Assembly (NCBI GenBank): GCA_021828475.1
Contig: JAJZIY010000012.1
Location: 1,010 to 65,009, forward strand
Source of the DNA: Actinomycetes bacterium
GTDB lineage: Bacteria > Actinomycetota > Acidimicrobiia > Acidimicrobiales > Palsa-688
Direction: 5' to 3'
Length of the DNA stretch: 64,000 bases
Shown here: positions 18,998 to 23,050 of the stretch, one piece after another
Layout of the letters: each line of letters starts with the position of its first letter
Numbering within the stretch: position 1 is the first letter of the stretch
Translations under genes and position numbers: made by a program
Notes under the pieces: model-generated
Told to the model about the DNA's origin: nothing
Database searches by the model: none
Seen by the model: only the letters and a program-made list of their open reading frames with translations

Positions 18998-19578
18998 ACG
19001 ACGACTCCGCCACCCTCTCGCCCACCGGCCAGCCGTGGCTGGCCGACGACCCCAACCTGGGTGAGGTGGTCGTGAGCGAGCGCCGGATCCGCGACCGCAC
19101 AGCCCAGATGGGAGCAGAGATCACCACGGACTACGCCGGCAGGCCGCCGTTGCTCGTCGGCGTGCTCAAGGGCGCATTCGTTTTCATGAGCGACCTTGCG
19201 CGTACCATCGCCCTCCCGGTCGAGTTCGACTTCATGGCTGTCGCCTCCTATGGCAGCAGCACCAGGACGAGCGGCGTGGTGAGGATCGTGAAGGATCTCG
19301 ACACCGATCTGGCCGACCGGCACGTACTGGTGGTCGAGGACATCGTCGACTCCGGGCTCACCCTTGCCTTCCTCCTGCGCAACTTGGCAGCCCGGCACCC
19401 GGCCAGCCTTGCCGTGTGCGCCCTGCTGGCAAAGGGCCCGCCGTCGGAGCTCCCGGAGCTGGCCTACGTCGGTTTCCACATACCGAGGGACTTCGTCGTC
19501 GGCTACGGGTTGGACATCGCGGAGCGCTACCGCAACGTGAGCTCGATCCGGCGCTACACCGGTCCGGTGCAGGCCTGA
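18994..19578 (+). CDS. hpt: hypoxanthine phosphoribosyltransferase
   Basis: ATG 18994 overlaps the tilS stop (ATGA). PRPP motif [14 protein letters not shown]. Confidence 0.9.
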
Positions 19579-19581
19579 GCG

Positions 19582-20163
19582 GTGGCGGTCGACCACGCGC
19601 GCGTCGCCGCCGCCGTGAGGGAGCTCCTGGCGGGAGTCGGCGAGGACCCGGACCGTGACGGGTTGAGGGAGACGCCTGCCCGGGTTGCGAGGATGTACGC
19701 CGAGCTGTTCTCCGGGCTGGACGAGGACCCGGTCCAGCACCTGAAGGCAACGTTCGAGGCAGAGCACGACGAACTGGTCCTCGTGCGCGACATAAGGCTG
19801 TTCAGCATCTGCGAGCACCACCTGCTCCCTTGGACCGGTCGGGCCCACGTCGCCTACATCCCGGCCGAGGACGGTCGGGTGATCGGCCTGTCCAAGCTGG
19901 CCCGGCTCGTGGGCGGTTACGCCAGGAGGCCTCAGGTCCAGGAACGCCTGACGGGACAAGTGGCCGACGCCCTCGTAGCGGCCCTGGCGCCCCGGGGCAC
20001 TCTCGTGGTGGTCGAAGCCGAGCACCTGTGCATGTCGATGAGGGGAGTGCGCACACCCGGTGCTACCACGGTGACATCTGCGGTCCGGGGCGAGTTCCTC
20101 ACCAGTGCCCCAGCACGGGCGGAGGTCATGGGCTTCCTGCAGCGGGGCAACCGGGAGCTGTAG
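19582..20163 (+). CDS. folE: GTP cyclohydrolase I
   Basis: Contains [11 protein letters not shown] and GLSKLARLV. 193 aa. Confidence 0.95.
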
Positions 20164-20257
20164 CATCCCGGTAAGCGGCACCCGAGCGAGGCGCCCAGGC
20201 CGGGCCCGGTGCTCGGGGCCGCCGTCCGGACCTGCCCGGCCAGGTGCTACCCGGCCG

Positions 20258-20887
20258 TTAGTACCTCGGTGCGACCGCAGCCAGCAGGGCCCCGGTCACC
20301 ACCAGCACCGTCCCGACGCGGTAGAGCCAGGTCCCCAGTGCCTCGTAGAGCTCCGGTTCCAGCAGCTGCCCCGGTCCGAAGTAGCGCCTGCGCCACCGGG
20401 CGCCCACGGCCGAGAAGAGGCACGCCGCGCCGAAGCCGGTGATCGTCTCGCCGGTCCGGGCGTGGACGGCGCCCATTGCCCACCAGGTCGTGTAGGCCAG
20501 GCTGGCCATCTTGAGCAGGGCCCACACCCGCGTGAACTGCAGCCACCGTCGGCGTCGCCGCCATGCCGGCGCGCCCGGGCCGCGGCCGTACTCGGGGTCG
20601 CCCGGGAGACCTGGCGCGCCGAGGTCGACAGGCTGGCGGTGCCGGTCGGCGGCCGCGGCCCAGTCGGCGGCCAGGATGTCGAAGGGGGTGCGCTCGGGCT
20701 CGGGCTCGGTGTCGTAGGCGGCATCGCCAGCGCGCTCTCGGTCGGGCCCCACGGGATGTGGCTCGGCACGGCCACCGCCGGCCTTTAGCCGGATGTCGAC
20801 CCCCTCCGTCCAGACCGGCCTCCGCTTCGGCCTTCGGGCGCCGGGTATGTTGGCCGGCGCAGTACCGATATGCTGGCGAATCGCCAT
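20258..20887 (-). CDS. hypothetical membrane protein (acidic/Pro-rich N-terminus, ~3 C-terminal TM segments); start uncertain
   Basis: Contains WLQFTRVWALLKMASLAYTTWWAMGAV, ITGFGAACLFSAV and LGTWLYRVGTVLVVTGALLAAVA. The competing plus-strand ORF is Arg/Pro junk. Confidence 0.5.
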   Translation of the reverse strand: MAIRQHIGTAPANIPGARRPKRRPVWTEGVDIRLKAGGGRAEPHPVGPDRERAGDAAYDTEPEPERTPFDILAADWAAAADRHRQPVDLGAPGLPGDPEYGRGPGAPAWRRRRRWLQFTRVWALLKMASLAYTTWWAMGAVHARTGETITGFGAACLFSAVGARWRRRYFGPGQLLEPELYEALGTWLYRVGTVLVVTGALLAAVAPRY

Positions 20888-21668
20888 GACGCTCGTGATG
20901 GGGGTCCTCAACGTCACCCCGGACTCCTTCTACGACGGAGGCCGTTGGCAATCGGTGGGCGCGGCCGTCGAGCACGGGCTCGAAATGTTCGAGCAGGGGG
21001 CGGACGTGGTGGACGTCGGGGGCGAGTCGACGCGGCCGCGCGCACAGCCGGTCGCCCAGGATGCCGAGCTGGCCCGCGTGGTGCCCGTTGTGGCAGCCCT
21101 CGCAGCTCAGCTCCCCGCCGGTCGGCGGTTGTCCGTGGACACCCGCAAGGCAGTTGTCGCCGAGGCCGCTCTCGAGGCAGGGGCGAGTATCGTCAACGAC
21201 GTCTCCGCCTCGTTGTGGCAGGTGGCAGCCAGGCATGGTGCCGGATGGGTGGCGATGCACATGCGGGGTGAGCCGGCCGACATGATGGAGCGGGCTGACT
21301 ACGCTGACGTGGTCGCCGAGGTCGCCACCTACCTGGGCGACAGGGCGGAGCAGGCACGCGACGGCGGTGTCCGGGAGATCTGGGTGGACCCGGGTATCGG
21401 GTTTGCCAAGCGGACCCCCCACAACCTCGCGATCCTGGCGGCGCTCCCCCGGTTGGTGGCCATGGGTTGGCCGGTGGCCGTCGGCGTCTCGCGCAAGCGT
21501 TTCACAGGGGCCCTGGCCGGGAGCGAGAGCGACCCGGCGCCGCTGTCCGAACGCCTCGAGGGGTCGTTGGCGGCGGCGGTGTGGGCGGCACTGGCCGGTG
21601 CTTCGATGGTGAGGGTGCACGACGTCAAGGCGACAGCGGACGCGGTGAGGCTCGTCGGTGCCGGTTAG
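20886..21668 (+). CDS. folP: dihydropteroate synthase
   Basis: Starts at ATG 20886: MTLVMGVLNVTPDSFYDGG. Contains VDVGGESTRP and GVSRKRF. Confidence 0.9.
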   Translation: MTLVMGVLNVTPDSFYDGGRWQSVGAAVEHGLEMFEQGADVVDVGGESTRPRAQPVAQDAELARVVPVVAALAAQLPAGRRLSVDTRKAVVAEAALEAGASIVNDVSASLWQVAARHGAGWVAMHMRGEPADMMERADYADVVAEVATYLGDRAEQARDGGVREIWVDPGIGFAKRTPHNLAILAALPRLVAMGWPVAVGVSRKRFTGALAGSESDPAPLSERLEGSLAAAVWAALAGASMVRVHDVKATADAVRLVGAG

Positions 21669-22223
21669 GTGGTCGGTTTGAGGGGCAAGTGGGCGGCCGG
21701 GATAAAGCCGCGGTTCTTCACGTGGGTGATAAAGGACCGGCTCGCCGTGTGCGAGCGGCCCGGCGGTTATGCCCGCAACCACCGCAAGGTGCGGCGCCGG
21801 GAGGAGATCCTCTGGATCAAGTGCCAGGGCTTCACCAGGGTCGTGTCGTTGCTTGCCTCTCCCCACAACCTGCACGCCTACGACGAGGAGCACGTGGCGT
21901 GGTCCCACGTCCCCTTCGCTGCCAACGACGACCCTGCCGCTGTGCTGCCGGAGCTCTACCAGCAGTTGCGCGCGTGGTTGCGTGAGGGCGAGAGGGTCGT
22001 CGTCCACCAGGAGGAGGTCGGTGACCGCCTCATGGGGACCGTAGCCGGCTATCTCCACTGGAGCGGCCTGCTGGCTGAGAGCGCCGCGGCCGTGGCCGTG
22101 GTGGAGAGGTTGCTGGGCCGCCAGATGGGGCCCGAGGGCCGCCGGCTCGTGGCGATGGTCCCCTCCTTCGCGCCGCCGGCTCCGGCTGGGACTGCGCCTC
22201 ATGACCATGAACCTGGTTCCTGA
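21669..22223 (+). CDS. dual-specificity/PTP-fold protein with the CX5R Cys replaced by Gln
   Basis: The P-loop-like segment VVVHQEEVGDRLMGTVAGYL compares with VHCxAGxxRS(G)xxxxAYL. A candidate general-acid region PFAANDDP is present. It starts 1 nt after the folP stop and overlaps the folB start by 23 nt. Confidence 0.6.
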   Translation: MVGLRGKWAAGIKPRFFTWVIKDRLAVCERPGGYARNHRKVRRREEILWIKCQGFTRVVSLLASPHNLHAYDEEHVAWSHVPFAANDDPAAVLPELYQQLRAWLREGERVVVHQEEVGDRLMGTVAGYLHWSGLLAESAAAVAVVERLLGRQMGPEGRRLVAMVPSFAPPAPAGTAPHDHEPGS

Positions 22224-22584
22224 CGTCATAGAGCTGCGCGGCCTGCGCTTCGTCGCCGCCCACGGCGCGCTGGAGGAGGAGCGCCAGCGTGCCCAGCCGT
22301 TCGAAGTCGACCTGGATCTCTACGCCGACCTGAGGGAGGCGGGGCGCACCGACGACCTGGGACGTACCGTCGACTATGCCGCCGTATGCGAGGCGGTGAG
22401 GGCCGTGGTCGAGGGCCCGCACGTCGATCTGCTCGAGACGCTGGCCGAGCGTGTGGCGGAGCAGGTGCTGGAAGCCGCCGGGCAGACGGCGTCGGCGGTA
22501 ACGGTGTGGGCGCGCAAGCTGCGCCCACCCGTTGCCTACCAGCTGGCGTCGGTGGCCGTCAGGGCCCACCGCACCCGCTCGTGA
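22201..22584 (+). CDS. folB: dihydroneopterin aldolase
   Basis: Contains IELRGLRFVAAHGALEEERQRAQPFEVDLDLY. Confidence 0.9.
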   Translation: MTMNLVPDVIELRGLRFVAAHGALEEERQRAQPFEVDLDLYADLREAGRTDDLGRTVDYAAVCEAVRAVVEGPHVDLLETLAERVAEQVLEAAGQTASAVTVWARKLRPPVAYQLASVAVRAHRTRS

Positions 22585-22597
22585 TCCTGGACGGGTC

Positions 22598-23050
22598 GTG
22601 ACGAGGGCGTTCCTGGCGTTGGGTTCCAATCTGGGCGATCGTTGGGGGTACCTGCGCGCAGGTGTGGCGAGCCTTCCCGACGTATCTGCCCTGTCCCACG
22701 TGTACGAGACGGAGCCTGTCGGGGGCCCTGGCGGCCAGGGGCCCTATCTCAACATGGTGGCCGAGCTGGCTACCGGGTTGGGGCCCCTCCAGTTGCTGGA
22801 GGCCGCTCGGGCGGCCGAGAGCGACGCCGGTAGGCGGCGGGTTGTCCGTTGGGGCCCCCGCACGCTCGACGTCGACGTGCTGATGGTGGGCGACATCGAG
22901 ATGGCGACAGAGGAGCTCACGCTGCCGCACCCGAGGATGTGGGAGCGTGGCTTCGTACTGGTACCGTTGGCGGACCTTGCCCCCGAGCTGCTCGCCGGGC
23001 ACCCGGGCGCTGCCGTGGCGCGTGGTGTGCGCCTGGCGGGAGACCTTTAG
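22598..23050 (+). CDS. folK: 2-amino-4-hydroxy-6-hydroxymethyldihydropteridine diphosphokinase
   Basis: Starts at GTG 22598: VTRAFLALGSNLGDR. Contains GPRTLDVDVL and LTLPHPRM. Confidence 0.9.
   Translation: MTRAFLALGSNLGDRWGYLRAGVASLPDVSALSHVYETEPVGGPGGQGPYLNMVAELATGLGPLQLLEAARAAESDAGRRRVVRWGPRTLDVDVLMVGDIEMATEELTLPHPRMWERGFVLVPLADLAPELLAGHPGAAVARGVRLAGDL

Follow-up and report, generated by a model that had tools for sequence, protein, structure and literature searches.

A Cys-less protein with a predicted dual-specificity phosphatase fold, encoded between folP and folB in Acidimicrobiia: a candidate pseudophosphatase independent of folate synthesis

In the topology of dual-specificity phosphatases (DSPs), the loops that follow β2, β3 and β5 emerge together at the active-site face. 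In the pseudophosphatase STYX the nucleophile is replaced, but the phosphate-binding loop is otherwise intact, its Arg included, and binds phospho-ligands. To our knowledge, pseudophosphatases are well known in eukaryotes and hardly described in bacteria, and a search of the literature on bacterial pseudophosphatases found nothing relevant. In folate synthesis, the step between FolE and FolB acts on dihydroneopterin triphosphate (DHNTP), for which NudB and FolQ are Nudix pyrophosphatases, the latter located in a fol gene cluster. Nothing was found in the literature on a DHNTP phosphatase in Actinobacteria or on folate auxotrophy in Acidimicrobiia. Here we describe an open reading frame, X, which encodes a Cys-less protein of predicted DSP fold within a fol operon of an Acidimicrobiales genome. 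A preliminary description had proposed that X could serve as a phosphate-binding module or unconventional phosphatase for DHNTP, or alternatively as a pseudophosphatase scaffold.

In the window, the whole stretch of 64,000 nucleotides analysed here, X occupies positions 21669..22223 of the plus strand and encodes 184 amino acids if read from GTG at 21669. This GTG immediately follows the folP stop codon (TAG, 21666-21668), and the folB ATG at 22201 produces an overlap of 23 nt with the 3' end of X, so that the placement originally claimed, directly after the folP stop and with a 23-nt folB overlap, agrees with the coordinates of both ORFs. TTG at 21678 is the likelier start, giving 181 amino acids, because the N-termini of X relatives (M-R/K-G-K-W) align to residue 4, where an Atlas record likewise begins. 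A Shine-Dalgarno-like AGGTGG at 21667-21672, which overlaps the folP stop, is located 5 nt upstream of this TTG. Tight coupling to folP holds with either start. X is a coding ORF and not a chance frame, as judged from its GC3 of 0.86, similar to that of folP, its many relatives, and a dN/dS of 0.02-0.15 among them. No RNA runs containing this stretch are listed; the runs are DNA only, mostly mine-drainage metagenomes.

The neighbouring plus-strand genes are folE (GTP cyclohydrolase I, 19582..20163; PF01227, 4e-72), folP (dihydropteroate synthase, DHPS, 20793..21668; PF00809, 6e-76, and TIGR01496, 7e-87), folB (dihydroneopterin aldolase, 22201..22584; PF02152, 3e-33, and TIGR00525) and folK (HPPK, 22532..23050; PF01288, 6e-36, and TIGR01498). 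By Pfam and NCBIfam, tilS, hpt and folE are found upstream of folP, and panC, coaX, lysS and clpC downstream of folK; there are no terminator-like sites between folP and lysS. The folE gene is directly 3' of hpt, the two abutting at 19578-19582 with no ftsH between them; tilS-hpt-ftsH-folE is the order known from other Actinomycetota. The true folP start is probably at about 20886, because homology begins only around residues 31-36 of the listed ORF (MTLVMGVLNVTPDSF), from where relatives align. With such a start, only a very short divergent promoter region would separate folP from the 5' end of a minus-strand gene at 20258-20917. This divergent gene (219 aa, GC3 0.88) lies in the folE-folP gap of 630 bp and splits off folE from folP-X-folB-folK. 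It matches no Pfam family and has hydrophobic C-terminal stretches; tblastn against 12 near relatives gives 97-153 bits in its frame, and for the plus-strand ORF that overlaps it (20105-20788) either 39-69 bits or no match, which marks it as a real gene.

Pfam and NCBIfam yield no match to X at E values up to 1. Among 26 diverse relatives, two or three reach only E 0.006-0.024 with the DSP models of these libraries (including DSPc, PTP-SAK and Tc-R-P), and X itself falls under every one of them. Searched alone against the PDB, X gives a weak match (E 0.021) to 25xa, a solved bacterial "dual specificity protein phosphatase family protein", in which HQEEVGDR of X is aligned to HCRAGYGR. A profile of the 26 relatives matches the same structure with E 6.4e-13 and VHR with 7e-4. 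The AlphaFold2 model built from this alignment (pLDDT 92.1, pTM 0.85) is matched by Foldseek to VHZ/DUSP23 (4erc, E 5e-8), KAP and Tk-PTP as top hits and also to baculovirus RNA 5'-phosphatase and Cdc14, and VIA-align superposes it on DUSP23 (2img) with Z 18.6 and rmsd 2.2 Å over 146 residues, and on STYX (2r0b) with Z 14.7. In the ESM Atlas, the nearest named clusters are PTP-SAK, Tc-R-P and DSPc. The DSP/PTP α/β fold assigned to X from its letters is confirmed at the level of the predicted structure, and the reading of a Cys-to-Gln change holds with it, because the model matches DUSP23/VHZ and the family profile matches a bacterial DSP.

The catalytic residues of this fold are not conserved in the family. 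For conservation, full-length relatives were aligned to the family HMM and thinned to less than 80% identity (n = 64). The loop that replaces HCX5R is H113-QEEVGD-R120 (22005..22028, plus strand), where Gln114 occupies the nucleophile position. In the 64 non-redundant sequences this position reads Gln (37%), His (15%), Arg (14%), Met (6%), Gly (6%), Ala (4%) or Glu (4%), and Cys in none. Gln is therefore not a specific replacement, position 114 being free among the relatives; the catalytic loop as a whole has escaped constraint. One closer relative, from family f3, carries Cys at this position, apparently by chance. The motifs quoted in the preliminary description (IKDRLAVCERPGG, PFAANDDP and VVVHQEEVGDRLMGTVAGYL) are all present in the translation. 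The P-loop Arg is indeed kept in this X as R120, in a loop that also contains E115, E116 and D119, but across the family it is retained in only 59% of the sequences. PFAANDDP, proposed as a possible general-acid loop, is kept only by close relatives and does not line up with the canonical general-acid Asp. Residues 83-88 are unconstrained in the 64 sequences, which contain no conserved general acid, and the position facing the canonical P-D of 25xa reads P-F/A (Ala or variable).

A different set of residues is conserved instead. The family signature, E-R-P-G-G-x4-H-R-x-V-R-R-x-E-E-x2-W, covers residues 29-49 (21753..21815, plus strand), that is, the β2-α1 loop and the start of helix α1. Within it, HRKVRR (HRxVRR) is a six-residue Arg-rich insertion relative to 25xa in the profile alignment. 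P14, W19, E29, G32, G33, R42 and E46 are found in 100% of the 64 sequences, R39, R43 and W49 in 98%, Y71 in 96%, H38, E45 and N67 in 95%, E146 in 95-96%, and H113 in 93%; position 119 is Asp or Glu in 91%. N67 and Y71, both in the β3-α2 loop (residues 60-71, SLLASPHNLHAY; 21846..21881, plus strand), are not shared with 25xa. W19, the PGG motif, H113 and the helix containing E146 belong to the general DSP scaffold, and E29, R30, H38-R39-x-V-R42-R43, N67, Y71 and D119 are specific to the X family. Some members have Tyr or Ala in place of H38, and some lineages Asp or Gln in place of E29. The C-terminal tails are Lys/Ala-rich and histone-H1-like in some orthologues and strongly acidic (Ala/Pro/Glu/Asp) in others. 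The hint of nucleic-acid binding from the basic tails was dropped in view of this inconsistency and that of the core domain, whose net charge ranges from -7 to +9 among orthologues with no consistent sign.

In the class Acidimicrobiia, X belongs to the core genes and occurs as a single copy. A word-indexed search gave 2037 relatives, mostly described as "hypothetical", one being labelled "protein-tyrosine phosphatase family protein"; the named sources are Acidimicrobiales MAGs. An exhaustive search gave 459 cluster representatives. When species genomes were scanned, at least 592 loci were recovered, each with a title naming an Acidimicrobiia, Acidimicrobiales or Actinomycetota MAG. In a set of 401 Actinomycetota genomes, X was found in 30 of the 31 Acidimicrobiia sampled, and outside this class only as weak matches in 4 of the 7 genomes of family f29. 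Of 251 Acidimicrobiia genomes with a completeness of 90% or more, 248 carry X once, and some of these are as small as 0.9-1.1 Mb. Two unpublished genomes (G538 and G572), both with X and HPPK, are counted here; without them the figures are 246/249 for X and 241/249 for HPPK. The signature motif is also seen in the outgroup homologues. Those of f29 (L021-L024), from another class of Actinomycetota, keep ERPGG...HR..RR..E..W and read VHCDRVSEW in the P-loop, with Cys and without Arg at +6. Their neighbours are genes for sugar transferases and glycosidases rather than fol genes (in L023, one for a sugar transferase and one for a GH5-like glycosidase), and in L021 the X-like domain lies inside an 881-aa open frame in DNA of 78% GC. 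In the window's own genome, no canonical DSP paralogue scores over its cut-off. A short ORF on contig C138 of genome G000 (L141:1348-1605, minus strand), starting from MHCARAERRT, has an HCX5R(T) signature and scores 22 bits with DSPc, under the cut-off. It adjoins an ArsR-type HTH gene and is possibly a piece of a Cys-phosphatase gene or of an arsenate-reductase-like one.

The place of X among the fol genes is widespread in the class. In the 80 nearest species, folP is directly upstream of X in 79 and folB downstream in 78, so that its embedding in a folP-X-folB arrangement extends to the relatives. The order folE-folP-X-folB-folK is common to most Acidimicrobiia families, including genomes of 1.1 Mb, and the stop codon of one gene often overlaps the start codon of the next. 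Families f11 and f12 (L016 of G119, L017 of G133) have folP-X-folK, without an intervening folB; two HPPK matches are observed per genome, and folB may be elsewhere or replaced. In family f3, X directly follows tilS in all seven loci examined and is followed by genes for an epimerase and an α/β-hydrolase, with no fol gene nearby, and in the larger genomes of this family folB-folK is beside a DHPS-like gene at a separate locus lacking X. X did not, then, move along when the fol genes went to another locus. In four such genomes (L029-L032 of G147, G302, G091 and G390), folB and folK are back to back in one stop-to-stop open frame of 295-420 aa. The oppositely oriented DHPS-like gene adjoins them in G091 and G390, that of G091 being under the TIGR01496 cut-off. 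Each of these two genomes has a much stronger Pterin_bind match elsewhere, which in G091 passes the TIGR01496 cut-off as a bona fide DHPS. In family f5, HPPK is present in both genomes sampled and X was found in neither; in the complete f5 genome, which carries folE-folP-folB-folK-panC, folP and folB are about 40 bp apart. X is thus dispensable in a lineage having the pathway. About 25 database proteins, nearly all singletons, appear to join a FolP domain to X (e.g., P0275, P0283 and P0293). They were rejected as fusions, since out-of-frame sequence at the FolP C-terminus marks them as assembly frameshifts, and they therefore provide no fusion-based evidence for a functional link.

X is also retained where the pathway appears to be missing. 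HPPK is encoded in 243 of the 251 genomes, and the eight lacking it all have X. One of these (G405) is an assembly artefact with X at a contig end, and was left out. The remaining seven, all of family f3 and 97-100% complete, comprise three of three genomes of genus g3, two of two of g8 and two of four of g7; six are drafts, the exception being G062, with two contigs and 100% completeness. In such genomes, folB was absent in six of six tested, folE in four of four, and DHPS in three of four, the fourth (G212) having only a weak sub-threshold match. Where tested, then, the lack of FolE means that no DHNTP or FolE-derived pterin is made in these cells. The seven organisms (G062, G379, G462, G212, G324, G459 and G537; e.g., locus L026) are small Acidimicrobiales of 1.7-2.5 Mb and are likely to be folate auxotrophs. 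Their X retains every signature residue. The Nei-Gojobori dN/dS is 0.10 in g8 (dS 1.0) and 0.11 in g7 (dS 0.5), as compared with 0.016-0.15 in pairs from fol-containing genera; in g3, dS is saturated and dN is only 0.14-0.19. X is under purifying selection in organisms that show no trace of the pterin branch.

Of the possibilities raised in the preliminary description, the fallback, a pseudophosphatase scaffold, is the one that we favour: the DSP fold is kept, the catalytic residues are no longer conserved, and dN/dS is well below one (0.016-0.15). In this proposal, for which we judge the chances to be evenly balanced, X is a non-catalytic DSP-fold pseudophosphatase with a rebuilt Arg-rich cleft and a folate-independent housekeeping role, and is co-expressed with the fol genes through inherited gene order. 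It would be a single-domain protein of the cytoplasm that arose from small atypical DSPs of the DUSP23/VHZ type and is no longer capable of thiol-phosphate catalysis. The family-specific residues would line the old catalytic cleft, because the loops that carry them, after β2, β3 and β5, open on the active-site face; we infer this clustering on one face from the topology of the DSP fold, not from measured distances. The six-residue insertion at the start of α1 would contribute a new Arg ridge, at the β2-α1 position which we take to be the same as that of the "arginine loop" of PTEN. X would most likely work by binding a partner at the rebuilt cleft without turnover, and this partner is probably anionic or phosphorylated. 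That relatives lacking the folate pathway keep X suggests a binding protein whose housekeeping job would be independent of de novo folate synthesis, rather than the missing phosphatase of the folate pathway. The block tilS-hpt-folE-folP-folB-folK-panC-coaX-lysS is a mix of unrelated housekeeping functions, so belonging to it is only weak evidence that X shares a pathway with its neighbours; X would owe its position between folP and folB to this old block, which would give it co-expression only. A point against this proposal is that the tight folP-X-folB embedding seen in most families is usually a sign of shared function.

The presence of a single copy in nearly every member of the class, down to genomes of about 1 Mb, makes it very likely that X does something important. 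In a bolder form of the pseudophosphatase proposal, which we put forward only tentatively, X represents a founding bacterial pseudophosphatase family, a class-wide and probably essential reader of a phosphorylated protein or a nucleotide-type signal. It would read this signal via the rebuilt cleft, composed of the Arg ridge with E29, N67, Y71 and D119, as a bacterial counterpart of STYX-like regulators with an independent origin. The family is unannotated in Pfam and NCBIfam, and mutagenesis and ligand screens can be aimed directly at the motif E-R-P-G-G...H-R-x-V-R-R-x-E-E.

A role that is linked to folate and yet involves no dephosphorylation is rather unlikely. X might bind a phosphorylated pterin or folate (e.g., its anionic polyglutamate tail), or dock FolP, FolB and FolK for channelling or regulation, and auxotrophs would keep it to handle salvaged folate. 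Both the class-wide, translationally coupled embedding between folP and folB and the invariant Arg cluster, which suits anionic ligands, are in keeping with such a role. It is opposed by f5, which runs an intact fol operon without X, by f3, whose fol genes are grouped at a different locus that lacks X, by the lack of FolE, where tested, in the fol-less genomes that keep X, and by the frameshift origin of the apparent FolP-X fusions. The conserved Arg/His/Glu-rich site could still support non-thiol catalysis. An enzyme with a new and unrelated activity on the old cleft, in which E29 or H38, for instance, acts together with the Arg ridge on a substrate other than a pterin, would explain why a compact set of polar and charged residues is near-invariant at a level typical of active sites, and why X is a core gene even in 1 Mb genomes. 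We nevertheless regard this as improbable, in that H38 and E29 are themselves replaced in some members and lineages, and that there is neither a precedent nor a candidate substrate. The proposal that X is an unconventional non-thiol phosphatase or pyrophosphatase acting on DHNTP between FolE and FolB is likewise improbable despite its operon position and the conserved His, Arg and Glu on the presumed cleft: the nucleophile position is free, a general acid is not conserved, only 59% of the family retains the P-loop Arg, E115, E116 and D119 should repel phosphate, and a dedicated DHNTP phosphatase would not be kept under purifying selection in seven genomes lacking folK and, where tested, FolE and folB, be absent from f5 in spite of its pathway, and stay behind in f3. 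The tempting annotation suggested by the operon, that of the "missing" pterin-triphosphate phosphatase of Actinomycetota, is thus opposed by both the phyletic pattern and the residue conservation, and may be removed.

Of the systems described so far, the DSPs of the DUSP23/VHZ type (2img, 4erc), together with the archaeal Tk-PTP/SsoPTP and the bacterial 25xa, have the same single-domain fold and size as the model of X. The scaffold motifs F-x-W-V, LA-x-S, PGG and VSL, as well as H before the P-loop, G-Y-L and R-x2-G-P-x-G-R, are common to X and this group. X differs from these in lacking the Cys nucleophile, a conserved P-loop Arg/Gly and the general-acid Asp after the H-x-P strand, and in conserving instead the HRxVRR insertion at the start of α1, E29, R30, N67, Y71 and D119. 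NudB and FolQ are similar to X only in the hypothesised pathway step and, in the case of FolQ, in location within a fol cluster; their fold and chemistry are unrelated, and X does not co-occur with the pathway. STYX (2r0b) and other eukaryotic pseudophosphatases of the DSP fold share with X a replaced nucleophile, and by analogy X is expected to act by binding rather than by catalysis. The loop of X is, in contrast to that of STYX, wholly degenerate and partly acidic, with conservation shifted to a separate Arg ridge, and X is bacterial, restricted to one class and of independent origin.
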